A stretch of 64,000 nt of DNA from a virus: positions 32,001 to 96,000 of the IMG/VR virus record IMGVR_UViG_3300045988_157190, one strand, 5' to 3'. Made by a program: the position numbers and the translations under genes. The notes beneath the pieces were generated by a model. That model did not search any database. It had not been told where the DNA came from and saw nothing but the letters and a program-made list of their open reading frames with translations. Below, piece after piece: positions 9,321 to 50,788 of the stretch (its first letter is position 1; each line of letters begins with the position of its first letter).

Positions 9321-10560
9321 TTGAAAATGAAATTAGTGTATAAATTCAATATAGGACAAAATGAAGATATATCATCCTTGTGCAAGATTAGCAATAACTT
9401 GTACAATCAGGCGTTATATATTTTCAGAGAAACGCTCTCTAAAGAAGATAAGTGGTTATCTTATTTTGAACTTGATTCTATTATGAAGAAAACCAAGAAC
9501 TTGGATGGAGATATTAATTATAGACTATTAAAGGCACAATGTTCCCAGCAGATTCTTAGGGTATTGGATAAAAACATTAAAAGCTACTATAAATCAGCCC
9601 AAGATTATAAGAAGTATCCCAGTAAATATAAAGAAAAACCTGGACTTCCAAGTTACAAAAAGAGAGGTTCGGAATTTTCTTTATATTATACGAATCAAAG
9701 TTGTAAGATTGAAGACGGAAAAATTATTTTATCAAAAGAGCTTTCAATAAGTATTCCTCAATATGAGAAGTATTCTGATTTGATAAAAGATTTCCAACAA
9801 GTTAGAATAAAACCATTAAATAAAGGATATAAAGTCGAGGTAATTTACGAAGTTAAAGATGTTGAAACACCTAAAGAGAGAAAAGAAAAAATTGCTTCAA
9901 TTGATTTGGGGATTGACAATTTGGTAACTCTTATCAGTGAGGATTTTGTTATCCTTTTTAGTGGTAAATTCATCAAATCATACAATCGATTTTTCAATAA
10001 GAAACTTGCTAAACTAAATAGTATCAAGGATTTGCAAAAGATAAAAGGAACAACAAGACGAATAAAGAAATTATATTATGATAGAGAACAGTACATAGAA
10101 GATGTCTTTCATAAAATTAGTAGAAAGATAGTTGATTTGCTTGTTGATTTTAAGATAACAAAATTAGTTGTAGGCTATAACAAGGGGTGGAAACAAAATG
10201 TAAATATAGGCAAAAAAGAATAACCAAAAGTTTGTACAAATCCCTTTTGCGAGATTGGTTAGTTACTTAGAATATAAATGCGAGTTAGCTGGTATTGAAA
10301 TAGTTATTCATGAAGAATCATATACTTCAAAATGTGATTCATTAGCATTTGAGAAGATAGGAAGACATAAGAGCTATTTAGGAAGAAGAAAGAAACGAGG
10401 ATTGTTTCAATCATCAGTAGGAAAACTTATTAATGCTGATGTAAATGGTGCATTGAACATTATGAGAAAAGTAGTCGGTGATTCCTGTGAATCTATTCAA
10501 AGGATAATCGATAGAGGGTTATTGTTTAACCCAGTAAGGATTACGAATGTATTTTGTTAA
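9321..10560 (+). pseudogene. tnpB: TnpB-like RuvC nuclease, copy A, split by a +1 frameshift in an A6 run
   Basis: ORFs 9321-10223 and 10255-10560 align end to end with the intact copies. Removing one A from 10212-10217 restores ...NIGKKNNQKFVQIPFARLVSYLEYKCE.... The D (SIDLGIDNL), E (EESYTSK) and D (NADVNG) residues are retained. Confidence 0.8.
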
Positions 10561-10660
10561 GAAAGTATATTCTGAAACTTATAAAGAAATGTAATAGATT
10601 TAATATTTTCATAACATGTTTTCCTACTTTTTCACAAGTACAATTTAAAAACAACAAGAC

Positions 10661-10909
10661 ATGAGCAGAAAGAAAGAAACAGAGCTTCAAAAGCTCATTA
10701 GACATATTAATTCCATAGACCGTCCATTTGAGTTTTACGATGTGTCGAGATGTAATTTATTCTTTAACGGTACACTTAGAAAAACTATTACCTATCTTTA
10801 CAGAGCGGGATTTATAGAACGGATTGAAAGAGGACGTTATAAACGCCTTAAAACAATCCCGGAGAATATAACTACTGTGGAGTTAGAAAAAATGGCTTAC
10901 AAACGATAA
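10661..10909 (+). CDS. small winged-helix-like protein
   Basis: YLYRAGFIERIERGRYKRL resembles a wHTH wing. Weak. Confidence 0.5.
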   Translation: MSRKKETELQKLIRHINSIDRPFEFYDVSRCNLFFNGTLRKTITYLYRAGFIERIERGRYKRLKTIPENITTVELEKMAYKR

Positions 10910-10914
10910 AAGAT

Positions 10915-11202
10915 ATGGAATTTTCGACAATTTGCATTGTATTACTGGGAATAATAACGGTTTTCCTATTGGGGACTGTATTTGTTCTTTGGTTGAGAGT
11001 TAAGAACTTGAGACACTACTGCATGGCAATAGATTCAAGAATTGATTCTGTAAGACTTAACTATCTCATAGGTTTTAGAAACCTCTTGATTCAGCAGGAA
11101 AAGTTTGAAGATGTAGAATACATAGACGAACTGATCAAAGACGAATATCCCGACATAAACCTAAAGGAAGTGACAGTAGAAGACATGCTTGATTTATTAT
11201 AA
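10915..11202 (+). CDS. single-pass membrane protein
   Basis: N-terminal TM ICIVLLGIITVFLLGTVFVLWL with an acidic C-terminus. Confidence 0.6.
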   Translation: MEFSTICIVLLGIITVFLLGTVFVLWLRVKNLRHYCMAIDSRIDSVRLNYLIGFRNLLIQQEKFEDVEYIDELIKDEYPDINLKEVTVEDMLDLL

Positions 11203-11223
11203 ACTTTTAAAAATCAATTGATT

Positions 11224-11655
11224 ATGGAGATTAAAGTAAAAAGAATAACACCTATTGATTATCCCTATACAATAGGAAAGATGTACATTGATGAGACTTA
11301 TTTTTGTGACACCTTGGAAGATCGTGTAAGAGACAAGGACAAGTCCGGTAAATTTGACAACGGGGAAACAAAAGTATATGGCGAATCCGCTATTCCTTAC
11401 GGACGATACAAAGTTGTTGTAAATATGTCTCCCCGGTTTAAAAGAGAACTACCCTTATTGCTGGACGTCCCTCATTTTGAGGGTATTAGAATCCACAGAG
11501 GGAATACAGACAAGGATAGCTCCGGCTGTATTCTTGTGGGGGAAAACAAGGTGAAAGGGAAAGTTATCAATTCCACACCTTATGAACAAAAAATTGTTGC
11601 TATTCTAAAAGAAGCACAGGACAAAGGGGAAGATATTTGGATCACAATTGAGTAA
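11224..11655 (+). CDS. YkuD/L,D-transpeptidase-fold-like protein (possible cell-wall enzyme)
   Basis: IRIHRGNTDKDSSGCILVG matches the His...Ser-x-Gly-Cys active-site pattern of the L,D-transpeptidase fold. ATG at 11224 is preferred over TTG at 11218. Confidence 0.5.
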   Translation: MEIKVKRITPIDYPYTIGKMYIDETYFCDTLEDRVRDKDKSGKFDNGETKVYGESAIPYGRYKVVVNMSPRFKRELPLLLDVPHFEGIRIHRGNTDKDSSGCILVGENKVKGKVINSTPYEQKIVAILKEAQDKGEDIWITIE

Positions 11656-11855
11656 GAAATATATACCTGTATAATTGTTTATAGTTAATCGAGTTGCAAA
11701 CCCATTAAAAGAAAGGAGGTGAGAGCATGAAATAGCAAAAATCTATTCTAAATTCCTCTATGAACAAATCTAAGTTTTAATAAAGGAGGATGCCGAAAAT
11801 CCTTAACAGAGTAGGTACATTAACAATCTCGTTGTTAGTAAATTACGTTAATCAA

Positions 11856-11910
11856 GAAAGGGCTTTGAACACAATCTGTAAAAATCGGTTCTTAGCCCTT
11901 TCGTCTTTAA
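11856..11910 (+). terminator. hairpin at the end of the + replication block
   Basis: gaaagggct (11856-11864) pairs with agccctttc (11894-11902). The loop is long and the T-tract weak. Confidence 0.35.
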
Positions 11911-11921
11911 AAACTAATAGT

Positions 11922-14500: not shown

Positions 14501-16267
14501 TTACATGCTTTCGTTTATCTTTTGTAATACACTTTGCAACACACTGTCGCCGTTGAAAGTTGTTTCTATTATAGTATTTGTATTTCCATCACCATAAGTA
14601 AACACTATTTTCCCGGTTTTATCATATAGCTTTATATCCTGTATAACTTTTAACTCTTTTGGGCTATCCTGTTTTACTTTAGATATGATACTTTCCAGGT
14701 TAAGTCCGGTTACCTCTAACATATCGTCCGTATAGTCCGAGACATTAAAATCAAAATAGCTTTCATTCTCTTTATTCTGGACAAAGTTATACGCTTCAAA
14801 CTCGTTTTTAAATACTTTTTCTTTTCCGTTCTTGAATAGGTGGAATGTTTGCGCGTTCGGTTGCTCCCAATGATAACCGTCTTTCTCCATAAAGAAAAAT
14901 ACTTTGTTTGTAGCACTTTCTTTGCTCTCCTGTAGGTTTGTATCATTTTTATTTTCCGACGTTCCTACAGGCTTAATATCTGTGTCCGGTTCTTTTGTTT
15001 CTTTTCCACAATAAACAGACGTTAACTTATCCGGGAAATAATCGTTCTTATCTCTAATTGAATTAAAATAATTAATTTTGTTATCAATCATAAAACAGTT
15101 GTCACAGTTGTCAGAGACAAAAGAAAGTTTACAATAACTATATTCTTTTGTAAAATATATTTCGCCGTTCCAACCGTCCAGACAAGAAAGTACTTTACTT
15201 AATCTATTATCTGATCTATAACTAAAATTAGACGGTTCAGACAATTGTACAAACAATTCTCCGTATTTATTCTCTGTATCACTTATTCCTAATTCTGTAA
15301 TATAATTTACTCTTAATCGGTCTGATCCTTTTTCTATCTCAAAAGAAACAAATTCGGAGACTTTAGATATAGTTTTTAAATCCTTTGTAAACTGTTTATC
15401 GTCCTTAACCGTTAATTTTAATTCTTTATATAAAATAGGATAAACAGATTCTATATTTACGTTTTTATCAGAATCATAGTAGCTACATTCAAACATTTCA
15501 CCTTTATCTGTTACGATCGTTACGACTGTTTGCTCTTCTTTATCGTCGCTATTGACAATAATATGGCATTCTTTCCCTACCAACTTTTTAAAGGTGTCAA
15601 AAGATATACATATATGCTTATCCCAATCGCCAAAAAGATTAGATATTTTCACGTTTCTACTTTTACAAATAAACGCATTAGTAGCATATATTTTGCTTAA
15701 ATTTATATCTATCAAAATATTGTTATCAATATATCGACTTGAATTTTTGGTTTTTACAGTTAGAAACGTTTTGTCTTTCTTATTAAATATAATATCAAAA
15801 GAACAAATACAATTATCCTCGCTTTCTTGTACCTGATTTCCTTCTTTGACAAATTCTAATTTTTCTTTGGCGCCGGACAACTGTTTGAACCTTTCCAAAT
15901 ATTCAAACACTTTGACTATATCAAAACTGCATTTAAAATTGTCTTTTTCAATAGAGACAATATTATTAGACACCTTACATACATAAGACACGCTATTTAT
16001 AAAAAAAGAATCAATATTTGAATAATAAGGACTTTTGTGTAGTATTTTTGTCACTTGTTCTTTTTCTTTCTCTGTTAGTCTTTCTGCTTTCCCTTGCTTT
16101 GTTTCAAGGCTTTCGCAGTTTGCGATATAGGCGTAAACGTCTTTCAATGTATATACGCCCGGTTTTTCGTTTTTAAAAAGTTCTTGGAAGTATGCTCTTG
16201 CGATTTCCAACAATTCAACAAAAATTTCCATGAATAAAGTATTTGTACTGTTATTAGTTGCTTTCAT
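14501..16267 (-). CDS. hypothetical 588-aa protein (faint sliding-clamp-like pattern in the C-terminal half)
   Basis: Long uninterrupted ORF. VYPILYKEL...RLSKVLSCLDG loosely recalls the DnaN domain pattern. Not reliable. Confidence 0.6.
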   Translation of the reverse strand: MKATNNSTNTLFMEIFVELLEIARAYFQELFKNEKPGVYTLKDVYAYIANCESLETKQGKAERLTEKEKEQVTKILHKSPYYSNIDSFFINSVSYVCKVSNNIVSIEKDNFKCSFDIVKVFEYLERFKQLSGAKEKLEFVKEGNQVQESEDNCICSFDIIFNKKDKTFLTVKTKNSSRYIDNNILIDINLSKIYATNAFICKSRNVKISNLFGDWDKHICISFDTFKKLVGKECHIIVNSDDKEEQTVVTIVTDKGEMFECSYYDSDKNVNIESVYPILYKELKLTVKDDKQFTKDLKTISKVSEFVSFEIEKGSDRLRVNYITELGISDTENKYGELFVQLSEPSNFSYRSDNRLSKVLSCLDGWNGEIYFTKEYSYCKLSFVSDNCDNCFMIDNKINYFNSIRDKNDYFPDKLTSVYCGKETKEPDTDIKPVGTSENKNDTNLQESKESATNKVFFFMEKDGYHWEQPNAQTFHLFKNGKEKVFKNEFEAYNFVQNKENESYFDFNVSDYTDDMLEVTGLNLESIISKVKQDSPKELKVIQDIKLYDKTGKIVFTYGDGNTNTIIETTFNGDSVLQSVLQKINESM

Positions 16268-22837: not shown

Positions 22838-23560
22838 TTAATCCAATTTTCCTTCGGTGAGTTTGCATTCTTTGATGATTTTCTCGATCTCATCTCCTTC
22901 ATAATCGTCTGTTTCACCTACAAGATGCGCTGTTTCTTCGTTGTAAGGAATGCAGTACCTTCTATTTAAACCACCTTCTATAGTGTAAATACACTCTTGA
23001 TTGCGAGGATTGATATGAGAAAAGAATGCTACAGACCAAGCACTTTCTTTATTATTTCTTACAAGTACCTTGTCGAAAGGTTGGAAATAATAAACATATT
23101 TCTTTCTCGGAAGAGAATAATGCCGGTGCTTTTTGTGGTTTTCTTGATTCCAGATATCTATCTCTACTTCTGTAGCAAGACGATCAATAGGAGAGATTCT
23201 GCTACCATCTACATTTGTCATGAAAGAGCCATCATCAGATATTATTCCAAATTCATTCAGATGTTCATTGTAGCCTACCATTCCAGCTTCAAAGGGAGAT
23301 TCTATTGTAGTCGCATAAGGATCAAAACCTTCCCATGTATTCCATATAGTAGGGAACAGTACACATGATCCTTTTTCATATAATCTCCCACATTCGTCCA
23401 GTTTTAATGTTAGATTTTTGTCTAAAGGCAAAACTTTCAAAAAGATATTGCCTTCTTTGTCTATTCTGTCCAAAAGGACATCTCCATGCGTGACAGAGTA
23501 AAGTTTAGTGTATTGTTTACACTCTTCGAGCAAACCCGCTATGTTTATTAATTTTTCCAT
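22838..23560 (-). CDS. hypothetical protein; C-terminal domain paralogous to 27151-27720
   Basis: ATG at 23560 (MEKLINIAG) is preferred over GTG at 23587. Shares FQPFxKVL...FSHI...CIP(Y/F)...HLVG..DD. Confidence 0.6.
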   Translation of the reverse strand: MEKLINIAGLLEECKQYTKLYSVTHGDVLLDRIDKEGNIFLKVLPLDKNLTLKLDECGRLYEKGSCVLFPTIWNTWEGFDPYATTIESPFEAGMVGYNEHLNEFGIISDDGSFMTNVDGSRISPIDRLATEVEIDIWNQENHKKHRHYSLPRKKYVYYFQPFDKVLVRNNKESAWSVAFFSHINPRNQECIYTIEGGLNRRYCIPYNEETAHLVGETDDYEGDEIEKIIKECKLTEGKLD

Positions 23561-28051: not shown

Positions 28052-28216
28052 TCAGTCAAAAACTTTTAGTGTCAAAATAACACCAATAAGAACAACTGCG
28101 ATAGGAACAATGATTATTTCATTGTCGGAAGCGCATACTTTTGCCAAACTATCTATTGTAAGATATACCATTACTGATTTGACTAATCTGCTTTCTGTTT
28201 TCCTATCTTTTCTCAT
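28052..28216 (-). CDS. 54-aa ORF with C-terminal TM helix (not in ORF track)
   Basis: Hand-translated as MRKDRKTESRLVKSVMVYLTIDSLAKVCASDNEIIIVPIAVVLIGVILTLKVFD. Lies between two operator palindromes, upstream of the HTH gene. Confidence 0.3.
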   Translation of the reverse strand: MRKDRKTESRLVKSVMVYLTIDSLAKVCASDNEIIIVPIAVVLIGVILTLKVFD

Positions 28217-30475: not shown

Positions 30476-30511
30476 CAGCACAATCAAGTAACAACAATAA
30501 AAATAACAATC

Positions 30512-34868: not shown

Positions 34869-35088
34869 TGTATATTTGCAGTCGAGATGAGATAGCTAAA
34901 AAGTTGAAGATTGGGAGTGATTCGCGGTAACTTCCCTTCTTTTCTTGAAGGCTATGTGAGGTTGATGGGAAATGACTTTAGGGTGTTTCCCAAAATTAAG
35001 GAGTTAAATTTCCCCTATAAGAATCGTTCCTAAAAAATAAGTCCCGAAGTAGGGCAAATGGCGGCTTATAGGATGGTTTACTCCTTTT
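34869..35088 (+). ncRNA. candidate ~220-nt structured non-coding transcript upstream of tnpB copy B
   Basis: Bounded by the TATATTTG box and the T-run ctcctttttttgttttt. No ORF. Local hairpins are present, e.g. gggaaa...tttccc at 34958-34982. Confidence 0.35.
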
Positions 35089-35123
35089 TTTGTTTTTAAA
35101 TAGGAAATTTCAAATATTCTATT

Positions 35124-35131
35124 TAAATTTG
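35124..35131 (+). promoter_or_regulatory. -7 box TAAATTTG directly before tnpB copy B
   Basis: Only 4 nt (cacc) separate the box from the ATG at 35136, implying a leaderless or near-leaderless mRNA if the box is used. Confidence 0.4.
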
Positions 35132-35135
35132 CACC

Positions 35136-36347
35136 ATGTATTTAGTAGAACAACATATTATTTCTGTAAATGATAAGAGGTATAAAGATTTAGATCGAAT
35201 TTGCTTCTTATCCAAAAATTTGTACAATGCAGCTTTATATGAAATAAAGCAAGAGTTCCTTCGTACGGGTAAATGGATAAGATACACTTCTCTTGATAGA
35301 AAATTAAAAGATGAAGATAATTTTGATTATAGAGCTATAAGTGCGGCTTCATCTCAACAAATTCTTATGTCTTTAGACAAAAGTCTAAAATCTTATTTTT
35401 TTGCTATCAAAGCATGGAAAAGAGATAACAAGAAATTTACCGGTTGTCCTAAGTTTCCAAAATACAAACATAAGACTAAAGGTAGAAATGTGTTCCCTTA
35501 CTCTTATGCACAGTTTAAGCACAGAGATAATTATATTTTCTTTCCTAAGAAAGAAGGTCTGTCGCCTTTGAAAACAAATTGTAAAGAAGGTTCTGTTAAA
35601 CAAGTTCGATTTGTTCCTAAACCAGATTGTTATATTATAGAGGTTGTATATGAATCAAAAGTAAAAGAACAGCTTCCTGATAACAATAGGGTTATGTCTA
35701 TTGATTTGGGCGTAAATAATCTTGCTTCTATTGTTACTAATGTAAGTAAGAAAGCTATTTTGATTGATGGAAGAAAATTGAAATCCATAAATCAGTATTA
35801 CAACAAAAAGAAGTCAAAAATCCAACAACAGCTAAAAAAGACAAATGGAAAAGAAAATTCGAGGCGGTTAATGTCTCTAACAAGAAAAAGAAACAATAAA
35901 GTGAAAGATTATCTTCATAAAGCAAGTAAAGAAATTATCAATATTTGCTTGGAAGATAATATAACAACGTTGATAGTAGGACATAATGATGGATGGAAGC
36001 AAAATACCAATCTTGGTAAAAGAAACAATCAGAATTTTGTAAGTATTCCATTTGAAACGTTTATATCAATGTTGAGATATAAATCAGAAAGACAAGGACT
36101 AAGGTTTGTTGAAGTAAACGAATCTCATACGTCAAAATGCAGTTCTTTTGATTTAGAACCAGTGGAACATCATGATCCTTACGTTGGTAAAAGAGTAAAA
36201 AGAGGACTTTTTAAAACAAAAGATGGAATTTTGCTCAATGCAGATATCAACGGAAGTTACAATATCATGAGAAAAGTAAAAGGGGATGCAGCAATGCCAC
36301 CCTATACAGGGTTTGGGTATAACCCAGTTAAGAAATTTATTAACTAA
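35136..36347 (+). CDS. tnpB: TnpB-like RuvC nuclease, copy B (intact)
   Basis: SIDLGVNNL (D), NESHTSK (E) and NADINGSYNI (D). Collinear with copies A and C. TAAATTTG box 4 nt before the ATG. Confidence 0.85.
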   Translation: MYLVEQHIISVNDKRYKDLDRICFLSKNLYNAALYEIKQEFLRTGKWIRYTSLDRKLKDEDNFDYRAISAASSQQILMSLDKSLKSYFFAIKAWKRDNKKFTGCPKFPKYKHKTKGRNVFPYSYAQFKHRDNYIFFPKKEGLSPLKTNCKEGSVKQVRFVPKPDCYIIEVVYESKVKEQLPDNNRVMSIDLGVNNLASIVTNVSKKAILIDGRKLKSINQYYNKKKSKIQQQLKKTNGKENSRRLMSLTRKRNNKVKDYLHKASKEIINICLEDNITTLIVGHNDGWKQNTNLGKRNNQNFVSIPFETFISMLRYKSERQGLRFVEVNESHTSKCSSFDLEPVEHHDPYVGKRVKRGLFKTKDGILLNADINGSYNIMRKVKGDAAMPPYTGFGYNPVKKFIN

Positions 36348-36567
36348 TAAATACTTAGGATGTCGTGAGATGAATGGTTTTTCGTGAGAAAGGCTTCTTT
36401 TGAAGTAACACTGTTCACCGCGTCTTTGAACGTAGCTGTAAGCTCCTTCTTTTAAAGGCTCTGCCGTTACCTTTGATCCCTGTGCGGAGGGAGATCGGCA
36501 CTTGTAAGCGATATGAGTACGGTTGCCGCACCAACATAGAAAGTATCGCTTACAAGTTTTTCTTTTT
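36348..36567 (+). ncRNA. candidate guide (omega) RNA region 3' of tnpB copy B
   Basis: 220 nt with no ORF, starting at the tnpB stop and ending in a 13-bp-stem terminator. Higher GC than its surroundings. Confidence 0.3.
36501..36567 (+). terminator. long-stem terminator downstream of tnpB copy B
   Basis: cttgtaagcgata (36501-36513) pairs with tatcgcttacaag (36544-36556), followed by tttttcttttt. Confidence 0.65.
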
Positions 36568-36634
36568 AGATTGTTCTTTTATAGGAAAAAAGTTATACTT
36601 TTGTATGTGTTGAATTATAAATAGGTGATTAGTA

Positions 36635-36642
36635 TAACTTTG
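36635..36642 (+). promoter_or_regulatory. -7 box TAACTTTG
   Basis: taactttgcacc repeats the context of the 35124 box (taaatttgcacc). Another TACTTTTG lies at 36596-36603. Confidence 0.4.
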
Positions 36643-36776
36643 CACCAGTTTATGTTAATCATCAATTTTATTAACGATACCGGTGGTGCACTGGGAATTT
36701 AAGCATGTGGAGAGACCTCTTTAGAAATTATTACGGGTTGATGGTTTCAACAATGTCCCTATGAAGCGTGAAAATA

Positions 36777-38370: not shown

Positions 38371-39573
38371 ATGCTTAGGCTTTTATTTACAACAAAAGAT
38401 TTAAGCAAGCAAATGACTGTCATAACAGATGGTGTAGACAGTCAGATGAATGTTTTTGTAACTGAAAATACGGTAGGTGATGTAGACTATTACAAATCTT
38501 TAGGGATTGTAATAAAAGCTGGTATTACCTATAATATCGGTAAGTTTATAGAATGGTGTCTTGCTAATGAATTGGGTCTTATCGGCTATCCCGAAGGACT
38601 GGAAGAAGAAAAGATCAATTATGTAAACGTTCTTGATAGAACGGAATATACGTTTACATTGCAGACAAAATCTCTTTCTTTCGTTAATACGGGTGAAAGC
38701 AAGAATTTTGTTGTTACTTCCAGCAAGCAGGAATATCGGGACGGTGCGCCTTACGGGGAACCCATAGCCGTTGCTATTCAGATTAAAATTTCCGGTACAG
38801 GTTTTTCGGGTAATGCGGGAATAAGTCAAATTTCTGCTACAGAGAATCCTACTGACAAGCAAAGAACTGGTACAGCTACAATCATTCAGAATGAGAGTGG
38901 AAAAACAGCAACCATTTCTTTAAGTCAAGCTGCATCTGTTATTACTTATGAAAATACGATCACAGCCAATAAGACAACTCTTACTTTTGCTGCAACGGCA
39001 GGTGATCAAGTGGTCACAATCACTTCTACCAGACAAAAGAAGCTGAACGGTAAGAACAGTGGTTCTCCAACTACCGTAAATACTACAGGAAAAGTAACCG
39101 GTACGGGTTTTTCTTTGAAAACTCAATCGGGAGCAAACTATACCGTTTCTGTTACTGAAAATACAAATGAGACTACCGGAAGAACAGGAACTCTTGTTGT
39201 GACACAGGAAGGGTCGGGAGCAAAATCAATTACGATTAATTTAAGCCAGCCAAAGGCAACTGTTGCTTATGTTTATAATTTGTCTTCAAACCCTTCAAGA
39301 GTGGAATTTGTTGCTACGGGTGAAACAAAAACTCTTTCTATTTCTTCTACAAAACAAAAGACGGTAAATGGAAAGAATAGTGGTAGTCCTGTGGCTGTGA
39401 ATTATACTACGACAGTTTCCGGTACAGGTTTTTCGAAAGGAACAACCGAATATTCCGTTGTAGCAGCGGTCAATACTGGTACAGCAAGAGAAGGGTCAGC
39501 AGTTGTAAAACAATCGGAAGGAACAAAGCAAATAACAATTACGCTATCACAGGCAGCAGGCACTTCCGCTTAA
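38371..39573 (+). CDS. protein with three tandem BACON/Ig-like repeats
   Basis: Three repeats of about 100 aa, each with L.F...G(E/D)...(V/L).(I/V).S(S/T).Q...G...G.P......(V/I)(S/T)GTGFS....R(T/E)G.(A/L)(T/V)(I/V).Q.....(A/I)(T/I)I.LSQ. Confidence 0.6.
   Translation: MLRLLFTTKDLSKQMTVITDGVDSQMNVFVTENTVGDVDYYKSLGIVIKAGITYNIGKFIEWCLANELGLIGYPEGLEEEKINYVNVLDRTEYTFTLQTKSLSFVNTGESKNFVVTSSKQEYRDGAPYGEPIAVAIQIKISGTGFSGNAGISQISATENPTDKQRTGTATIIQNESGKTATISLSQAASVITYENTITANKTTLTFAATAGDQVVTITSTRQKKLNGKNSGSPTTVNTTGKVTGTGFSLKTQSGANYTVSVTENTNETTGRTGTLVVTQEGSGAKSITINLSQPKATVAYVYNLSSNPSRVEFVATGETKTLSISSTKQKTVNGKNSGSPVAVNYTTTVSGTGFSKGTTEYSVVAAVNTGTAREGSAVVKQSEGTKQITITLSQAAGTSA
38647..39558 (+). repeat. three tandem ~300-bp coding repeats (BACON/Ig-like)
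   Basis: Protein-level repeats at aa 93-188, 189-296 and 297-396 of ORF 38371-39573. Confidence 0.75.
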
Positions 39574-39585
39574 TTTTTTATTGAC

Positions 39586-41289
39586 GTGAGTAGGAAAAGA
39601 GACAAAAATAAAAATCAAGGAAAGTCAGACCTGTTAAAGGGTCTGACCAGCCTTTCTTTGGAAGATATTGTAGGATTGCAGAAAACTCTTCCTACTTTGC
39701 TTCAATCCAAATTACAACAGATGTCCCGGTCTGACAACTTGGGGGATTTGGTGAAAGCTAATCTTTACATGGGGAACATCAACCAAAGACAGGACGATGT
39801 AAAGGCTGTGTTCTTCAACCCGGACGAAGCAAGCGATACGGGAAGGGGTTACAAAGATCCTAACTTTTACGGTTCTATGCCGTTCGAAGTGCTTCGGAGA
39901 ATGGGGGACATCTTTGTTGTTCGGGCTGTTGTCAATACCCGTGTCGAACAGGTTCAGAACTTTCTCCATTTCAGTACGGATGAACAGAAAGAAGGATACA
40001 CTATTAGAAGGAAAAGGAATCCTTTTGAGAAGGTAAGTGCAGAACGCTCAAGAGAAGATCAGATTAAAATTAGCTATATCAGAAAGTTTTTGGAAGAAGG
40101 CGGTTTTCACGACAAATGGGAATCATTTGATACATTCCAAGACTTTGGGAGAAAAGTTGTGTTTGATAGCCTTACTCTTGATCAGCTTGCATTTGAAATA
40201 GTAAGGGATAGATCGTGGAATCTGGCACGTTATCGTGCTGTAGACGCTTCTTTGATACGTTTTCTTGATAGTATCGATCCGAAGTTCCGGGAAGAATTTG
40301 AGCAGTATCGGTTCAAAGGCTATTTACCAAAATATTGTATGTGCTGGCAAGGTCAGATCATGCAGCATCCTGTTACGCATGAAAGTGTTATCTTTTACCC
40401 TTGGGAGCTGGGTATTGGTATCCGTAACAAATCCACCAACATATATAAAAACGGGTACGGAACATCTGAACTGGAAACACTGTCAAGCGTTATGACATGG
40501 ATTTTGTGGGGGTTTGAATACAACGGCCTGTATTTTTCTAAAGGGTCTAATCCTAAAGGAATTATTAATGTTAAGAATCCGAACATATCGCAGGCTTCTT
40601 TAAGTGAGTTCAGACAGGCATGGCAGCAGACGATGGTGGGGGTTCAAAATTCTCATAGAACGCCTATTATCAATGGGTTAGACCTTCAATGGGTTGATTT
40701 ATCCAAAAACACTAACCGTGATATGGAGTTTAGTGAGTGGGTAAAATTCCTACTTGTTATGACTTGTGCTGTTTATCGTATTGATCCGTCAGAGCTTGGA
40801 TTCCAATTCAAAGATCAGACAAATATCTTTGGACAAGCTGGACAAAAGGAACGTTTACAACATTCAAAAGACAAAGGACTAAAACCTATTCTTGTGTTCT
40901 TACAAGAGGTGATCAATTATTATCTTGTATCAGAACTGGATGAAGATTTTGAGTTTGTCTTTACAGGTGTAGATGCGGAAGATGAAGGAAGACAGGTTGA
41001 GATTGATGCTAAGAAAATTCAAAACGGTATGGTTTGTCTGGAAGATATTTTTGAAAAATACTCTGGACGTAAATTCAACCCAGAAACTGATACCATTTTG
41101 AATCAATCCTACCAGCTTCAAAAACAATATCAGATGCAGCAAGCTATGTACGGAGGTGATGCGATGAACGAAGAAGTGGATCGACAGATCGCGTCAGAAG
41201 ACAAAGAAGATACACAGAAATCGTTTGATTCCAACCCTATCATGAGTGCTGCAATGTCTTACATTGAAAAGAATTGGGGAGAAAAGTAA
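39586..41289 (+). CDS. portal protein (by size and position)
   Basis: 567 aa with a GTG start. First large ORF of the head module, followed 200 nt downstream, after one small ORF, by a MuF-like gene. Confidence 0.6.
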   Translation: MSRKRDKNKNQGKSDLLKGLTSLSLEDIVGLQKTLPTLLQSKLQQMSRSDNLGDLVKANLYMGNINQRQDDVKAVFFNPDEASDTGRGYKDPNFYGSMPFEVLRRMGDIFVVRAVVNTRVEQVQNFLHFSTDEQKEGYTIRRKRNPFEKVSAERSREDQIKISYIRKFLEEGGFHDKWESFDTFQDFGRKVVFDSLTLDQLAFEIVRDRSWNLARYRAVDASLIRFLDSIDPKFREEFEQYRFKGYLPKYCMCWQGQIMQHPVTHESVIFYPWELGIGIRNKSTNIYKNGYGTSELETLSSVMTWILWGFEYNGLYFSKGSNPKGIINVKNPNISQASLSEFRQAWQQTMVGVQNSHRTPIINGLDLQWVDLSKNTNRDMEFSEWVKFLLVMTCAVYRIDPSELGFQFKDQTNIFGQAGQKERLQHSKDKGLKPILVFLQEVINYYLVSELDEDFEFVFTGVDAEDEGRQVEIDAKKIQNGMVCLEDIFEKYSGRKFNPETDTILNQSYQLQKQYQMQQAMYGGDAMNEEVDRQIASEDKEDTQKSFDSNPIMSAAMSYIEKNWGEK

Positions 41290-41329: not shown

Positions 41330-41488
41330 ATGCCTTTAGTGTCAAATGTACATCATCATGTTGATCCTATGCGTTACCCAAAAGTACAGGAAGGATATGA
41401 AGGTATGGCGCAAGTTATCTTTTCGACACAGATAAATAATATGTTGATGGATTTGACGAAGAAAATAGTAGAACAAAAATCTAAGTAA
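41330..41488 (+). CDS. small hypothetical protein
   Basis: Internal ATG of track ORF 41246-41488, which otherwise overlaps the portal 3' end. Confidence 0.35.
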   Translation: MPLVSNVHHHVDPMRYPKVQEGYEGMAQVIFSTQINNMLMDLTKKIVEQKSK

Positions 41489-41490
41489 GT

Positions 41491-42444
41491 ATGCTATTCA
41501 CACCGGAAGAGATACAGCAGTTGTTTTTCATTGTCGATTATCGTATTGCTCGTGTAATTGCCGATGTGCTGGGTAAGGAATATCTTTCCCAAGAAGACAT
41601 AGATATGCTGAAAAGATTTGGCTTTGATTTAAAGACAGAAGTTCTGAAAATACCACCTTATTGGCAAGCATTCATATTTGGACGGTTAGCAGCCATACTT
41701 TCTCCTGCGCAGCTTTCTTCGCTTGATTTTAACGACTTAAAACAATATGTTGAAAAGGAACAATACCCGGCATTGACAACAAGGGAAAAGGCAGAATACA
41801 ATGCGTCGGCTATGCGTTCTTATTCCTATATAAAGGGAATGGGAAATAAAATAAAGGATTCTCTTTCTTCTACTATATCGGAAGAAGAAATGAAAATAGC
41901 TGTTGCGGAACGAGAAATGGAAGTTGAAACAGCTATTAAAGAAGAACTTTCAGAAGGGGTTATAAAAAGGAAATCTGTTCAGTCTATAGTAAGTGCACTT
42001 GGACATAGATTGGATGAATGGAATCGTGACTGGGGACGTATAGTCGCCACCGAAATGGAGAACATTTTTCAGATAGGTACGGCTCAAATGATAATGAAAG
42101 AACATGGCATCCATGCTAAGGTGTATAAGCAAACAATGCCACAAGCCTGCCGGTATTGCTTAAATGCCTACACTACAAATGGCTATGGCTCTAAGCCCGT
42201 TATTTTTGATTTGTCCGAATTGATTGCCAACGGTACTAACATAGGTAAAAAGTCAAAAGACTGGAAGCCTGTTTTAACAAATATTCACCCTTTTTGCAGG
42301 TGTATGTTAAGACATGTTCCAGATGGATATGAATGGGATGACAAAACACAGTCATTTGAACCTAAAAAAGTAGATGAAAGTAAGCGGGTTCAGAGAAAAT
42401 CAAAGGTAAAAATAACTGTAGGTACAAAATATTTCGAAGTGTAA
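41491..42444 (+). CDS. head morphogenesis protein (Mu F / SPP1 gp7 family)
   Basis: C-terminal CRYC...NIHPFCRCML matches the HPxCRC signature of the MuF family. Confidence 0.7.
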   Translation: MLFTPEEIQQLFFIVDYRIARVIADVLGKEYLSQEDIDMLKRFGFDLKTEVLKIPPYWQAFIFGRLAAILSPAQLSSLDFNDLKQYVEKEQYPALTTREKAEYNASAMRSYSYIKGMGNKIKDSLSSTISEEEMKIAVAEREMEVETAIKEELSEGVIKRKSVQSIVSALGHRLDEWNRDWGRIVATEMENIFQIGTAQMIMKEHGIHAKVYKQTMPQACRYCLNAYTTNGYGSKPVIFDLSELIANGTNIGKKSKDWKPVLTNIHPFCRCMLRHVPDGYEWDDKTQSFEPKKVDESKRVQRKSKVKITVGTKYFEV

Positions 42445-42917: not shown

Positions 42918-42925
42918 TTTCTGAT

Positions 42926-44899
42926 ATGGGTTTAAACTTGAAAGCGTTGCTCGGATTGCAGACGCAAAATGAAAAAATAGCTGAATATAAAAGACTTCTT
43001 AAAAAAGGAAAAGAGGTAAGCCAAGAGATAAGCTCCCTTGGTGAAATCTATTCCATTCAGAAGTCGCAGTACGATGAACTGAAAGGAAGTGAAGATGCTG
43101 ATGCAGTTGCAAAGGCAGAAAGTTGTTTTAATGAGTTTTTAAAGCAACAGTCTAAGGATTTGATGGATGTGTACAAGAGAAGAAATTCTATCCATAAATC
43201 CATTGCAAAGTTGGAAAATGATGAAGAATTTGCTGAAATGGCAAAAGACATTCGTCAACTTGAAAGCTGTCGTGAGTTATGGAGACAGGGCTTGATCAAG
43301 AAATCTGTTTACTTTGATTTGTTTAAGGCGAAGCAAGGGAAAGTTCAGTTTGCGGACGTGCTTGTTTTTAGAGGAGACAAACTTCTTATTTTGAATCGTG
43401 TGGGAGAAAAGGGCGCGGTTTCAAATGATTGGTGTATTCCGGGTGGACATGTTGACCCGGGAGAAACTTTCTTGCAAGCTGCAAAAAGAGAACTGTTTGA
43501 GGAAACAGGTATTGATATGTCGGAAGAACTTTTGATGCCGGTCGGTAAATACATTCCAAAGAGAAAAGGTATTGAAATTCACTATTTCATGTGCTTTGTT
43601 GATCCTGATGCTCCTGTCAACATTCTTGTGGACGGAGAAGAAGAAACAGGTAGTGAATGGATCAATCCTCACACTGAACTTGACCAATATAATTTTATCT
43701 TTGATATGAAAGATAATATCAAACGTATTCTTGGTATTGAGGTACAGGATGAGTTTCAGTTGGTAATGAAATCTTTCAAAGAGGGCAAAATTTCAAAGGA
43801 TGTATTCACCTCCTATTGTGAAAAGAATCCTGAAAAACTTGAAAAGTCGGCAAACAAAACTTCTTTTACGCATGAAGAAAGAAAGGATTTGGCAAAGAAA
43901 GGTGAAGCAATGCCCAATGGCAAATATCCTATTCGCAATCGGCAGGATTTGAAAGATGCTATTCGTTTGTCCGGTAGTTCTTCTATGTCGAAAGAAGAAG
44001 TAAAGAAATGGATCAAGAAACGGGCAAAGGAGCTTAATCTGGAAGACGAATTGCCGGAAGACTGGAAAGTAGAAAAAACTATGGATACAGCAGACGTACA
44101 TGTATTGCAGCGTGAATCTTTGGATGGTGAAACCAAAAATATTGTTCGTACAGAGGATGGTGTAGGCGAAGGTATTGAAAAGGCTATTACTTTCAAGAGA
44201 ACTATCTATGAAGAAAAAGAAGTCGAAGTGGTAGAAGAGCCGAACAAATACACTTACGGTGAGTTTCATATGAATTTCTCTGATAATGATGGTGGAAAAG
44301 GAGATAAGTTTGCTGATTTTTTAGGCATACTTCAAAAGGTAACTTGTCTTGGTAAACCTTTTTCTATTGTTATTAAGACAGAAGAAAATGGGGAACAAGA
44401 ATGGAAATGGAATGGTAAGTTTCGCATTGAAGGCACTACCAAAACAGAAAACATCCGAAAATCGACAGAAGATGAATTGTCTGTTGAAAATGGAAATACC
44501 GAAGAAATCGAAAAGTCCAAAAAGACCGATAAGAGTATTTTCAACACTTATCTCAATTTTCTGGAAGGAACTAAAACACGTCTTAAAAATATTCATTGGG
44601 GTGAGGAAGATAATTCCAAGCATGTCTATCTCGATGAACTTTCAGAAGAAGTTTCAGAATTTGAGGATAAGATTGCGGAAGCCGGGCAATCGGGATTCGG
44701 ACGATTCAAAGACGGGGAAATCCAAGGGGATGAAGTGAAAGAGGATGATCCGGTTGCTATTTGCCAAATGATATTCGACAAAACGATTGAGTTCAGAAAA
44801 GAACTTGCTGAAAAGGATGAATACATTGGCGAGGTAAGCTGGATTGATGATTTTCTTGCAACACTCAAACAGTCTAAATATAGATTGCAATTGCATTAA
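42926..44899 (+). CDS. large multidomain protein with a central Nudix hydrolase domain
   Basis: Perfect Nudix box GHVDPGETFLQAAKRELFEETGI (nt 43445-43513). The C-terminal KNIHWGEEDNSKHVYLDEL...DKIAEAG is faintly Dps/ferritin-like. Confidence 0.75.
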   Translation: MGLNLKALLGLQTQNEKIAEYKRLLKKGKEVSQEISSLGEIYSIQKSQYDELKGSEDADAVAKAESCFNEFLKQQSKDLMDVYKRRNSIHKSIAKLENDEEFAEMAKDIRQLESCRELWRQGLIKKSVYFDLFKAKQGKVQFADVLVFRGDKLLILNRVGEKGAVSNDWCIPGGHVDPGETFLQAAKRELFEETGIDMSEELLMPVGKYIPKRKGIEIHYFMCFVDPDAPVNILVDGEEETGSEWINPHTELDQYNFIFDMKDNIKRILGIEVQDEFQLVMKSFKEGKISKDVFTSYCEKNPEKLEKSANKTSFTHEERKDLAKKGEAMPNGKYPIRNRQDLKDAIRLSGSSSMSKEEVKKWIKKRAKELNLEDELPEDWKVEKTMDTADVHVLQRESLDGETKNIVRTEDGVGEGIEKAITFKRTIYEEKEVEVVEEPNKYTYGEFHMNFSDNDGGKGDKFADFLGILQKVTCLGKPFSIVIKTEENGEQEWKWNGKFRIEGTTKTENIRKSTEDELSVENGNTEEIEKSKKTDKSIFNTYLNFLEGTKTRLKNIHWGEEDNSKHVYLDELSEEVSEFEDKIAEAGQSGFGRFKDGEIQGDEVKEDDPVAICQMIFDKTIEFRKELAEKDEYIGEVSWIDDFLATLKQSKYRLQLH

Positions 44900-48051: not shown

Positions 48052-48095
48052 GGGAGGGAAAGGTTTTTGAAACACCTTCCTCTCCCTATTTTATT
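48052..48095 (+). terminator. terminator after the major capsid gene
   Basis: gggagggaaagg pairs with ccttcctctccc (wobble/mismatch tolerated), followed by tattttattt. Confidence 0.6.
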
Positions 48096-48116
48096 TATCA
48101 ATAAATCATATTTCGT

Positions 48117-48683
48117 ATGAAAAAGATTGTATCAACAGTATATAAAAACACTACCATTCAGTTTTTGAATGAGCTTGTGGAGTTTGAAAACGGGAAAGCC
48201 GAAGTAAAGGACGAAACTTGGGAATACATCAAAAATGGCGGTTTCTCCGGTATTGCTTTGGAAGAAGAAGCTAATACGCTTGAAAAGGAAAAATCTGAAT
48301 CTGAAAAAGATACTGATGAAGCTCTGAAAGTTCTGAAAGAAGAATACGAGTTTGAAATTGCTCGTTTGAACGGTATTATCAAAGATAAGAACAAGAAAAT
48401 CGAACAATTGGAGCAGTCTATTGACGTTTGGAAAAAAGAGGTTGAAAGACTGTCTAACGGTGGTCAGCCGAAAGAAACTGTGGAAGAACCGGTTAAAGAA
48501 GAAGCCGGCGCAACAGAAGAAGAAATTGCTTCTTTAAAGGAAGATATGTCTAAAATGACTTTTGAGGATTTGAAGGCACTTGCTATTGAAAACGGAATGA
48601 GCAAACAGAAAGCCGGAAGATTCAAAGAAGAAAGTCAGAAAGATGAACTGATTGATGCTATAATTGCGTTACCCAAAAAGTAA
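48117..48683 (+). CDS. acidic coiled-coil protein with C-terminal HeH/Rho-N-like motif
   Basis: MTFEDLKALAIENGMSKQKAGRFKEESQKDELIDAIIAL. Confidence 0.5.
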   Translation: MKKIVSTVYKNTTIQFLNELVEFENGKAEVKDETWEYIKNGGFSGIALEEEANTLEKEKSESEKDTDEALKVLKEEYEFEIARLNGIIKDKNKKIEQLEQSIDVWKKEVERLSNGGQPKETVEEPVKEEAGATEEEIASLKEDMSKMTFEDLKALAIENGMSKQKAGRFKEESQKDELIDAIIALPKK

Positions 48684-48698
48684 AAAAGACATTAAGTT

Positions 48699-49505
48699 AT
48701 GCCGGGACAACTGATTTTTACAGTAAAGTACAAGAAAAATACGGGTTCTGTCATTTCCGTTGCGGAGATGTGGAACAATTACCTGTACGGTATCGCTATA
48801 CAAGCCGGTACGGGGACTTCTTTTTCTGATGAATCACTTAGAACTTATTTGAGTGCTGCACAGAGAGAGATCGAGAATTATTTTAATCTCAAATTTGTAA
48901 AGCAATTAGTTGAATCGGAAACACATTCTTATTACAGAACAGATTATTTCCAACAATTTCCTATCATTCAAACTAACTGCCCGGTAAGAGTTCCACTTGC
49001 ACTTACAGGTATGCTTAATAAGATGGAGCAGATTATTTACCCGCAAGGTTGGCTTAGTTGTGAGAAAGATATGGACGGGATAGGAAAACGAAGAATGAGT
49101 GTTGTTCCTACCGGTGCAAATTCGGTCAATGCGAACGCAGATGTTATCCTTACCGGAATGACAACTCAGATAGGCTTCCAGCGGTTTACAAACATACCAG
49201 ATTATTGGGATATTCAATATATAACCGGTTTTGATTTGGATAAAATGCCTGCCGATTTGATTAATCTTGTTGGTAAACTTGCTTCGTTCGGCCCGCTTAA
49301 TATTGCCGGAGATATGATATTCAGTTTACCCGGTATAGCTTCTATGCACTTGGAAATAGATGGATTAAGACAATCTATCAACTCTACCGCTTCTGCTGAA
49401 AATGCAGGTTACGGGGCACGCTTGAAACAGTATCAAAAAGAAATAGAGGAAACTGTAGGGCGGATAAAACTCGTGTACGATGAATTTAGGTTTTTAGTAT
49501 TATAA
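48699..49505 (+). CDS. head-tail connector/neck protein (by position)
   Basis: ORF in the virion module. No motif recognised. Confidence 0.45.
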   Translation: MPGQLIFTVKYKKNTGSVISVAEMWNNYLYGIAIQAGTGTSFSDESLRTYLSAAQREIENYFNLKFVKQLVESETHSYYRTDYFQQFPIIQTNCPVRVPLALTGMLNKMEQIIYPQGWLSCEKDMDGIGKRRMSVVPTGANSVNANADVILTGMTTQIGFQRFTNIPDYWDIQYITGFDLDKMPADLINLVGKLASFGPLNIAGDMIFSLPGIASMHLEIDGLRQSINSTASAENAGYGARLKQYQKEIEETVGRIKLVYDEFRFLVL

Positions 49506-50788
49506 GGAGGGTAATTTGTTTATTTTGTTTTTATTGAAATTTCAAATAGTAAAATTGATTGATGAGATTGGTTGAAAAACATATTGTTAAAGATAACCGA
49601 TTTGAAGATATTTGCCTCAAATCAGGATTGCTATATAATTATGTCCTGTATAATGTGCGTCAAGGTATCTTCAATAAAGAATATCTGAAAGAATATGATC
49701 TTTCTACTAAACTTTGCAAAGAAAATCAATTTGATTTTAGAAATTTGCCATCATCTATTTCTCAGCAAGTAGTTGGACAAGTATTCAAGTCTATCAATTC
49801 TTGGATAAAGTTGAAAAAGGATTTTGGAAAGAATCCAGCTAAACACAACAATCGTAAGCCTCACCTTCCTTCTTACAAGAAAGGAAAGAAACAGAATATG
49901 GTAGTCTTTACAACTTCTGCTTGTAGAATCAAAGATGGATATATTTACTTCGTTAAAAATATCATTCAACCAATTAAAACTAAAATAGGAAACAATAAAC
50001 TATGTCAAGTTAGAATTATACCACAAGCTACTTGTTATGTAGTTGAAGTGATTTACGAAAAGAAAGAACAGGATTTGAATTTAAACAAAGATAATGTTCT
50101 TTCGATTGATTTGGGATTGAATAATTTATGTTCATGTATTAACAATGCAGGAAAACAACCTTTCATTGTAAACGGACATATTATCAAATCTTTTAATCAG
50201 TGGTACAATAAGAGAAAAGCTAAATTAATGTCTTTTGCAGGAGACAAAGGGACTTCAAAAAGACTTAGACAACTTAACAATTATAGGAATTTTTGGATAG
50301 AAGATCATATCCATAAGGTTAGTAGATTTATTATAAACTATTGTATTGACAATAATATCGGTAGTCTTGTAGTAGGACTGAATAAAGGATGGAAACAGAA
50401 AATTAATCTTGGAAAGAAAACAAACCAGAAATTTGTTGAGATTCCTTTTTCAAGGCTTATAGATAAAATTTCCTATAAATGCAAATTAGTTGGAATTAGT
50501 TTTTATCTTAGTGAAGAATCATACACATCAAAGGTTGATCATTTAGCTTTTGAAGAATTAGGAAAACATGACGCTTACTTAGGCAAAAGAAAGAAACGTG
50601 GGTTGTTCCAAAGTTCTGTAAATAAATTGATTAACGCAGATATCAATGGAGCTATTGGAATAGGTAGAAAAGTATTCAGTGATTCTTATGTAAGTAGGAT
50701 AATTGATAGTGGGTTAGCGTTTACCCCGGTCAAAGTAAACATTGCATAGTGTGGAAATTTGATAAATGAAATTTAAAATTTTAGTAAC
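49506..50788 (+). mobile_element. tnpB-only IS200/IS605-like insertion between two virion genes (boundaries approximate)
   Basis: The whole intergenic gap is filled by tnpB copy C, with 56 bp of 5' and 39 bp of 3' flank. GAAATTTCAAATA (5') and GAAATTTGATAAAT (3') are similar end words. Confidence 0.5.
49562..50749 (+). CDS. tnpB: TnpB-like RuvC nuclease, copy C (intact)
   Basis: SIDLGLNNL (D), SEESYTSK (E) and NADINGAIGI (D). The closest paralog is copy A. Confidence 0.85.
   Translation: MRLVEKHIVKDNRFEDICLKSGLLYNYVLYNVRQGIFNKEYLKEYDLSTKLCKENQFDFRNLPSSISQQVVGQVFKSINSWIKLKKDFGKNPAKHNNRKPHLPSYKKGKKQNMVVFTTSACRIKDGYIYFVKNIIQPIKTKIGNNKLCQVRIIPQATCYVVEVIYEKKEQDLNLNKDNVLSIDLGLNNLCSCINNAGKQPFIVNGHIIKSFNQWYNKRKAKLMSFAGDKGTSKRLRQLNNYRNFWIEDHIHKVSRFIINYCIDNNIGSLVVGLNKGWKQKINLGKKTNQKFVEIPFSRLIDKISYKCKLVGISFYLSEESYTSKVDHLAFEELGKHDAYLGKRKKRGLFQSSVNKLINADINGAIGIGRKVFSDSYVSRIIDSGLAFTPVKVNIA

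Follow-up and report, generated by a model that had tools for sequence, protein, structure and literature searches.

TnpB proteins are the ancestors of Cas12 and are compact genome editors. Three tnpB genes, here called A, B and C, lie in one stretch of viral DNA of 64,000 nucleotides (the window: positions 32,001 to 96,000 of IMG/VR record IMGVR_UViG_3300045988_157190), which covers ~64 kb of the ~105-kb genome of a human-gut myovirus. Several described systems resemble them in part. ISDra2 TnpB (IS200/IS605; PDB 8EXA, 8H1J) has the same fold as the model of B, and its guide RNA overlaps the 3′ end of the gene, as would be expected here; its homing logic, built on a target-adjacent motif (TAM) and a guide from the right flank, would also be the same. 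None of its own traits occurs here, however: a Y1 TnpA, an element without terminal inverted repeats (TIRs) or target-site duplications (TSDs), a C4 zinc finger, a canonical glutamate and a TAM, TTGAT, abutting the left end. The homing logic of TnpB is known from previous work (PMC10690162; bioRxiv 10.1101/2023.03.14.532601), and by analogy it might be carried over to two other transposon types. ISFba1 TnpB (PDB 8IAZ; PMC11061315) is like A and C in its IS607 context, where a serine-recombinase TnpA precedes a TnpB of ~390 aa, and elements of its type are abundant in the human gut and have often suffered decay of tnpA. Its TAM, AGGAG (a ribosome-binding sequence; PMC11061315), and the ATG proposed here are both translation-start signals. 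The ISFba1 right-end RNA (reRNA) differs in having a 187-nt RAGATH-18-derived scaffold wholly outside the open reading frame (ORF), and there is no RAGATH-18 here.

Fanzors and pro-Fanzors (PMC10711439, PMC3627910) share with the present genes an IS607 origin, capture by cut-and-paste transposons with TIRs and TSDs, presence in viruses and a relocated catalytic glutamate, 6 residues before the first zinc-finger cysteine position. They read DPG at RuvC-I and keep CxxC...CxxC, whereas the window copies read D-L-G, lack the zinc finger and belong to bacteriophages, so that despite the relocated glutamate they fall outside that class. The Fanzor TSD lies in the TAM or scaffold, whereas here the 8-bp TSD would make up the opening 8 nt of the target that the guide matches. 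The DDE-associated TnpB branches DDE-1 to DDE-6 (PMC10691335; PMC13565253) are like B in placing TnpB inside inverted terminal repeats. The text of PMC10691335, supplements apart, names IS630, ISL2 and IS1031 as DDE families with TnpB, as against IS1595 for the shell of B, and it describes solo TnpBs whose ends match those of transposase-bearing elements, implying mobilisation in trans. A literature search returned nothing relevant on IS1595 with TnpB; the supplements of PMC10691335, which it did not cover, could list IS1595. Free-standing phage homing endonucleases (SegF and others) are likewise selfish, wedged between phage genes and spread in co-infection; targeting here would be RNA-guided, unlike theirs. 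IStrons also neutralise the harm of insertion, by splicing, where a new start codon would serve here; an IStron or group I intron context was ruled out, as only ~60 nt lie 5′ of the ORFs and no Rfam intron was found.

Considered together with these systems, the window genes are best explained, with a probability we put at roughly 75%, as the decayed cargo of two unrelated types of mobile element, carrying members of a zinc-finger-less TnpB clade with a relocated glutamate that would spread by RNA-guided homing. Directly shown are the families to which genes and elements belong, the fold, where the elements begin and end, the occurrence of sites with and without them, the transposases that go with them, purifying selection and motifs at the targets. 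The components are of known kinds, while the IS1595 shell with an offset TAM and the IS607 elements that replace a start codon appear to be new variants. A broader claim, that this gut-phage clade is paired with two transposition systems in ways not previously described (IS1595 shells with an offset TAM and start-codon-returning IS607 elements), is put forward tentatively, at a little under even odds.

A, B and C are TnpB-family RuvC nuclease genes, as profiles, the AlphaFold model and Foldseek agree. A preliminary description, made from the letters of the window alone, had proposed three TnpB-like RuvC nucleases, and the ORFs indeed stand where it placed them (Table 1), with A frameshifted at a run of six A residues. 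Against the NCBIfam model guided_TnpB (NF040570; cutoff 100 bits), B scored 196 bits, C 148 and the N-terminal part of A 114, and all three copies matched Pfam OrfB_IS605 (PF01385) and Cas12f1-like_TNB (PF07282). An AlphaFold2 model of B, computed from an alignment of 100 diverse relatives, reached a predicted local distance difference test (pLDDT) of 94.6 and a predicted template-modelling score (pTM) of 0.90, and it has a RuvC/RNase H fold with WED/REC/TNB architecture. Foldseek matched the model, at probability 1.0 and template-modelling (TM) scores of 0.6–0.7, to AsCas12f, ISDra2 TnpB (0.60–0.70), ISFba1 TnpB (0.65–0.68) and Fanzor2. The copies are distinct paralogues, as had been noted; protein identity is highest for A and C (43.6%, against 37.8% for A and B and 38.9% for B and C), which are therefore the closer pair.

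The D-E-D triad reported earlier is present in its residues, though not in its canonical arrangement. Across the 100 relatives, D190 and D370 of B never vary and conservation of E329 is at least 90%, and the RuvC-III aspartate of NAD(V/I)NG is kept in all copies. The canonical RuvC-II position is taken in B by G282, an invariant glycine; when the profile is aligned with AsCas12f, "viGxNxgWKQ" of the B family falls opposite the canonical "...M-E-D-L...". E329, in EESYTSK, instead lies 6 residues N-terminal of the vestigial first cysteine, the relocated layout (E_alt, RIIr) described for Fanzors and some prokaryotic TnpBs (PMC10711439, PMC13565253). From this glutamate to the last aspartate there are 41 residues, as against 81 in ISFba1 (D194/E290/D371). 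Membership of RIIIr-4, the zinc-finger-less, virus-enriched clade in which, according to the text of PMC10691335, histidine replaces the RuvC-III aspartate, is ruled out by the retained and invariant D370; a TldR, or nuclease-dead TnpB-derived repressor, is ruled out by the conserved triad. The ratio of nonsynonymous to synonymous substitution rates (dN/dS) is 0.09–0.11 for A against its relatives, 0.05–0.13 for B and 0.06–0.19 for C, and by this measure the B and C families are under strong purifying selection.

The loss of the zinc finger, a central claim of the preliminary description, stands. Between ES(Y/H)TSK and NAD(V/I)NG, the three copies have no or one cysteine and no CxxC; in the AlphaFold2 model of B, a small, confidently modelled beta-sheet takes the place of the finger. 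No conserved cysteine occurs anywhere in the 100-sequence alignment, so that a zinc site provided by another part of the fold, which had been raised as grounds for refutation, is ruled out. The suggestion that the trait would mark out this phage did not survive comparison with its relatives: CxxC was absent from the same segment in all 119 diverse representatives with a recognisable motif (50%-identity clusters, all at E<=1e-72). Judged by these alignments, the zinc finger has truly been lost, and its loss characterises the clade rather than this phage. Since zinc-finger loss is documented, the text of PMC10691335 reporting it for "some large TnpB branches", absence of the C4 finger is compatible with TnpB membership. 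Both the loss and the relocated glutamate are already known in general terms.

B belongs to a transposon shell of the IS1595 type. Its full-length relatives measure 1317–1328 bp, begin with GGTAACTATATACCAGTTTACAG and end with ...TATATA(A/G)TTACC, and have TIRs of ~22 bp (GGTAAYTATATAYMAGTTTRCA; also in the form GGTAACTATATACCAGTTTAC) and 8-bp direct repeats; their right end reads ...TACCAG-TGCAAA-CTGGTA-TATAGTTACC. The TSDs agree at 7–8 of 8 positions at 25 unique sites of TnpB shells, and tnpB is the only gene of the 1.32-kb element. When 185,579 species genomes were scanned for the TIR consensus, complete elements with the same TIRs and 8-bp duplications were recovered, mostly from Bacteroidota. 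These encode a DDE_Tnp_IS1595 transposase of ~305 aa (PF12762, 152 bits), and sometimes KilA-N or RhuM passengers; the transposase was present at 34 of 120 bacterial loci and TnpB at none of the 120. IS1595 transposases are also found at 216 phage loci, with near-identical TIRs and including contigs that bear TnpB shells, and TnpB lay near the transposase at one of 80 phage loci. No DDE_Tnp_IS1595 lies between the ends of the TnpB shells, which are thus non-autonomous, and we infer from the shared ends that the IS1595 transposase mobilises them in trans. TnpB subfamilies as little as 43–56% identical to B are housed in shells of this kind, which makes the association an old one.

The copy of B in the window has lost both TIR tips, the hairpin and TAA, and keeps only a 7-bp flanking repeat, TAGGATG, whose right member lies at 36356–36362. 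The corresponding empty site, with a single TAGGATG (15596–15602), is found in MT835500.1 (L001; human faeces), the sole related record in the phage collection, with which window positions 20074–64000 are collinear at ~88–93% identity. Several smaller observations concern these shells. Miniature inverted-repeat transposable elements (MITEs) of 150–240 bp with the same TIRs and 8-bp duplications occur in contigs of rumen and gut metagenome-assembled genomes (L087, L093, L098, L099, L106, L141 and others), from which it follows that the transposase services several kinds of non-autonomous elements. At L311 (~1110–2470), a TnpB with 61% identity to B lies within another inverted repeat, of 25 bp (AAATGATTTTCCGCAAGAATACCCC), and this suggests a third kind of shell for the clade. 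At L014 and L021 (~2712–2800), a B-type element occupies the phage site of B, and its right end has nested TIR fragments and ~60 nt of additional sequence before TAGGATG; the synonymous distance (dS) between same-site copies reaches 0.7, a hint that the element has been replaced more than once. A conserved palindrome, TTTAAATAG-N15-CTATTTAAA, lies just 5′ of the ATG of B (~35095–35127), and its core, GAAATTTCAAATA, recurs in the 5′ untranslated region (UTR) of C (~49537–49549) despite the different transposon families; the shared core may be a common promoter or operator. The 400-nt non-coding stretch 3′ of B (36363–36767) is native, being 83% identical in MT835500, which lacks B there.

A and C are, by their partner genes and junctions, IS607-type elements. 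Beside A, a remnant of a serine-recombinase gene begins right after the stop codon of the phage ORF 8846–9271 and overlaps the start of tnpB; in a tblastn search with the TnpA of locus L368, it matched at 9284–9340 with 58% identity over residues 183–201. The A-family loci L368, L393 and L394, 82–88% identical, have at the same position an intact TnpA of ~200 aa with helix-turn-helix (HTH) and Resolvase domains. Such a gene, ending inside the tnpB start, is also found in the more distant L332 and L349; the Resolvase domain (PF00239) of these proteins scores 66–83 bits. In A, all of tnpA except the remnant is gone. The tnpB gene itself is interrupted by the A6 run at 10213–10218, and removal of one A restores an ORF of 410 aa collinear with C. 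The IMG/VR contig L363, 98.7% identical, has A5 and an intact ORF with 100% amino-acid identity to the restored A, so that the break amounts to a single homopolymer base, either a very recent mutation or a sequencing error. Programmed frameshifting is unlikely: only a +1 shift at A6 would restore the frame, and the run in the sister contig is A5.

The right end of A is of a type conserved at ~45 A-family loci, where it adjoins the start codons of diverse downstream genes. C has kept an intact right end, of a type conserved at ~70 loci, and its terminal GTG (50789–50791) is the start codon of the phage ORF 50789–51580. The C-family loci retrieved included none with a tnpA. The left end of C stands directly 3′ of a ribosome-binding site, GGAGG (49506–49510), that first served the downstream gene; a "GGTAAT" there was considered as a remnant of an IS1595 TIR, and the flanking ribosome-binding site (GGAGG-TAA...) is the simpler source. 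Left ends of A- and C-type elements start directly after a flank ending in (T)ATG, and their right ends terminate in ...CATAAC-ATG (A family) or ...TAAC-GTG (C family). The junctions thus read ...A[TG]|left end and right end...(A/G)[TG]|flank, with no TIR and no TSD beyond the shared TG. This TG fits a crossover dinucleotide, apparently a variant of the GG that is canonical for these serine recombinases (PMC10711439), and in contrast to ISFba1 a start codon comes with the right end. At 38 of 45 unique sites, an ORF of 50 codons or more begins with the terminal RTG; the count in the other two frames is 0 of 90. One such exchange is visible where the empty window sequence AAAATAA-TTTCTGAT-ATG-GGT-TTA-AAC becomes, in L232, AAAATAA-AGA-ATG-AGA-TTA...(tnpB)...AATGAC-GTG-GGT-TTA-AAC. 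At the site of C itself, ATG-TCA-AAG-AGT in MT835500 (empty) corresponds to GTG-GCA-AAG-AGT in the window.

Footprints of such elements also occur without tnpB. In MT835500.1, at 23235–23300 (the equivalent of the start of window ORF 42926), a solo right end has been left by deletion of tnpB between two AATTTG microhomologies, and it still gives the downstream gene its GTG. In the window, the GTG start of the portal gene (39572–39588) is preceded by TTTTTTATTGAC, identical in MT835500 and a 12/14 match to the IS607-type right-end tail ATTTTAATGAC-GTG; it may be an ancient right-end footprint, and is short enough to have arisen by chance. In annotation, GTG starts after ...TAAC may turn out to be footprints of transposons.

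The mobility of these elements can be seen directly. B (35095–36348) is 92.8% identical to B′, a copy elsewhere in MT835500 that has intact inverted repeats, and each phage is empty at the other's site. The site of C is empty in MT835500 (29872/29880). A clean 8-bp duplication of AAATAACA (window 30501–30508) flanks the full-length element of L027, whose flanks are 99.9% identical to the window, and the 8-bp duplication of L017 is confirmed by a true empty site in MT835500. Apart from the sites compared with MT835500, the window holds four more empty sites for insertions found in IMG/VR phages. A fixed place among the core genes of the phage group, once raised as an outcome that would overturn the proposal, is therefore excluded by the empty and filled sites and the multiple positions in MT835500.1, IMG/VR and the window, and the comparison with genomes lacking such insertions gave boundaries for both the B type (TIRs and TSDs) and the A/C type (TG junctions). 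MT835500.1 also holds a fourth copy, D (7391–8712, minus strand), an IS607-type element with ~70% DNA identity to C that is frameshifted and keeps a C-terminal tnpA remnant; its site is empty in the window (~28205–28215).

A guide RNA, a TAM and cleavage are what we infer from conservation and insertion sites. Synonymous variation collapses in codons 316–330 and 376–403 of the B family and in the last ~25 codons of the C family. The right-end hairpin of B-type elements is 94.6% paired, with compensatory double changes in 5 of 8 pairs, and it contains numerous G-U pairs, which can form only in the tnpB-sense strand. Folding of the 3′-terminal 313 nt of a full-length B-type element gives z=-4.7. 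In the A/C type only 42–58 nt follow the stop codon, so that the RNA must overlap the gene. At 18 of 18 unique sites of the B subfamily, TAA occupies positions -11 to -9, immediately 5′ of the duplicated 8-mer. Among elements that share these TIRs but lack tnpB, the figures are 8 of 48 end-views in bacteria (p=2e-10) and 14 of 89 flanks in phages (p=4e-12). With only 16–17% in TnpB-less elements of bacteria and phages, the transposase's own preference is ruled out as sole cause, and TAA is the stop codon of the upstream gene at just 1 of 16 sites, which rules out that origin. Diverged TnpB subfamilies in the same shell have TTA-T in place of TAA. It follows from the position of TAA that the empty site reads TAA, the 8-mer and the downstream sequence; the downstream part is the sequence after the right end in the filled site, which itself matches the guide over 8 nt only. 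The rule fits a TAM, with the TSD forming the start of the guide-matched target. For the A/C type, the corresponding motif is (T)ATG followed by codons 2–7.

A life cycle can be conceived from these parts. In the A/C type, a serine recombinase would recombine at the TG of a phage gene's ATG, leaving that ATG at the left junction, and the right end, ...AAC-(A/G)TG, would give the interrupted gene a new start codon, making insertion nearly harmless in a densely packed phage genome. The non-autonomous B-type shell would be moved in trans by DDE_Tnp_IS1595 from Bacteroidota or related phages. In either type, an RNA from the last ~270 nt of tnpB and the right end would guide TnpB, and the complex would cleave unoccupied sites in co-infecting phages (TAA, then the 8-mer and downstream sequence, for the B type; (T)ATG, then codons 2–7, for the A/C type), after which recombinational repair of the cut would copy the element in. 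With the TAM 8 bp from the left end, the TSD would become the first 8 nt of the guide-matched target, and such an offset could let an RNA-guided nuclease drive the homing of a cut-and-paste transposon despite its variable TSD. The homing role imagined in the preliminary description is thus plausible, as empty and filled sites are compatible with it.

Several observations weigh against this explanation. The guide RNA, the TAM and cleavage are predictions from sequence comparison. The 3′ region of B in the window has a z of only -1.45, with hairpin and TAA lost, and that of C folds no better than shuffled sequences (z=-0.9); no omega/reRNA family (RAGATH-18 included) was detected with Rfam, at the gathering threshold or at E<=1. 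The TAA rule could be the target preference of a shell-specific transposase variant, and a single element with both IS1595 transposase and tnpB was not found among 120 bacterial and 80 phage loci. The right end of the A family, CATG, is close to the proposed TAM, TATG, which would put the element at risk of cutting itself. The window's own copies may be inactive, A being frameshifted and B without hairpin, both TIRs and TAA, and ~41 kb of the phage genome lies beyond the window.

The preliminary description had taken the genes for IS200/IS605 members and the lack of TnpA as their condition. On that understanding they would form a phage-specific, zinc-finger-less lineage that has no transposase and spreads only by RNA-guided homing, which agrees with the empty and filled sites, with the IS605-named profiles among the TnpB matches and with the want of a transposase gene in the window. 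By tblastn, there is indeed none apart from the 19-residue IS607 remnant, a result that holds for the window only, as this is part of the phage genome. We nevertheless consider such a lineage very improbable, and IS200/IS605 membership itself is ruled out: B-type elements have TIRs and 8-bp TSDs, A/C-type relatives encode serine-recombinase TnpA, whose remnant lies beside A, and neither the window nor the relatives examined yielded a Y1 transposase. Colonising new sites with TSDs needs a transposase, and all 119 cluster representatives are zinc-finger-less. The assignment accordingly changes to IS607 for A and C and to an IS1595-type DDE shell for B, and the missing TnpA would reflect deletion and mobilisation in trans, not a life independent of transposases. 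The TAA itself invites another thought, that TnpB, with or without RNA, recognises it and steers the DDE transposase 8 bp downstream. TAA lies exactly 8 bp from the left end at 18/18 sites, as against ~16% in TnpB-less elements with the same ends, and the motif varies with the TnpB subfamily. Yet a guide that comes from the flank cannot exist before the new site is entered, homing that depends on the TAM would leave the same pattern through survivorship and by no new mechanism, and no transposase–TnpB fusion or co-encoding was found; target selection by TnpB, as a primitive counterpart of CRISPR-associated transposons, seems to us a long shot.

Domestication is a more serious prospect, if still an unlikely one: the phage would keep the copies, B above all, as an RNA-guided weapon or regulator against competitor phages or host DNA, or for superinfection exclusion. 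Without its TIRs B cannot transpose, yet same-site copies show dN/dS of 0.05–0.08, its catalytic residues are all in place, and an identical protein is encoded on 89 contigs, the longest of 109 kb. According to the text of PMC10691335 and to PMC10705468, immobilisation is common among TnpBs, some of which have been exapted. B has, however, lost its covarying right-end hairpin and any unusual structure in its 3′ region, so that a working guide RNA is doubtful; the low dN/dS may largely predate immobilisation; and there is no fixed synteny across the phage group, MT835500 lacking B at the same site. The copies in the window are plainly degenerating, with A frameshifted, B without both ends and A and C without tnpA, and it might be thought that all three are dead relics without present function. 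The frameshifted copy and the solo footprint in MT835500 do show that decay is frequent. Even so, the ORFs of B and C are intact with all catalytic residues, family-wide dN/dS is ~0.1, the gene downstream of C now depends on its complete right end, and the defect of A is one homopolymer base missing from the fault-free contig 98.7% identical to it, all of which leaves complete inertness improbable. Decayed cargo of two element types thus remains the preferred explanation.

To our knowledge, cooperation of TnpB with transposases other than those of IS605 and IS607 is known mainly from eukaryotic Fanzors. The phage elements would provide an example from bacterial viruses with precise, testable predictions: a TAM (TAA) set off from the transposon end by exactly the TSD length, a serine-recombinase element that swaps a gene's start codon, and nucleases of ~400 aa without a zinc finger whose guide RNA would have to be contained in the coding sequence for nearly all its length. 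Should the nuclease be active, several independent RNA-guided gene drives per genome would be present in gut-phage populations. The clade is very common in human-gut phages; considering that IMG/VR holds more than 500 such TnpB loci, often two or three per phage genome, these elements could shape gut-phage recombination and competition in the way that homing endonucleases act in T4-like phages. For annotation, "TnpB without TnpA" need not mean IS200/IS605.

Table 1. Coordinates of the elements, their parts and the empty sites in the window
Feature	Position	Strand	Remarks
tnpA remnant beside A	9272..9340	+	serine recombinase, C-terminal ~19-22 codons, frame break
tnpB copy A	9327..10560	+	as is, split into 9321-10223 and 10255-10560
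Right end of A	10561..10618	+	terminates ...TTTTCATAAC-ATG; candidate guide 10619-10638
Empty A-type site	10910..10917	+	ATG of ORF 10915; truncated A-type element in L409
Empty B-type site	30498..30508	+	TAA + AAATAACA; filled by full-length element in L020, L027
Left TAGGATG repeat flanking B	35069..35075	+	remnant of 8-bp TSD
Left end and 5′ UTR of B	35076..35135	+	eroded; outer ~15 nt of IS1595-type inverted repeat gone
tnpB copy B	35136..36347	+	403 aa; D190, relocated E329, D370; G282 at canonical Glu position
Right end of B	36348..36362	+	eroded: TAAATACT in place of 34-nt hairpin and inverted repeat
Empty site for B′	41486..41496	+	TAA + GTATGCTA spanning ATG of ORF 41491; filled in MT835500
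Empty C-type site	42918..42928	+	ATG of ORF 42926; filled in L211, L214, L217, L232
Left end and 5′ UTR of C	49511..49561	+	remodelled; tnpA and original left end absent
tnpB copy C	49562..50749	+	395 aa from ATG; alternative TTG at 49559
Right end of C	50750..50791	+	...AAAATTTTAGTAAC-GTG; candidate guide 50792-50811

Among the genes of the window are those for a tail sheath, a portal, a major head protein, a ligase and helicases; the first three identify the phage as a myovirus and rule out a crAss-like phage. Close relatives of the three proteins are encoded at 279 (B), 235 (C) and 53 (A) IMG/VR loci. Two or three different TnpB elements share a single contig in 3300045988_111939 (L077, L269, L352) and 3300045988_087698 (L031, L233, L279), and as such combinations are common among gut-phage genomes, the three copies in the window are typical of the group. 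The intergenic region after ORF 11218–11655 contains a DUF805b RNA motif (Rfam RF02914) at 11783–11817 on the plus strand, with a score of 52 bits against a gathering threshold of 35.6 (E 6e-12).

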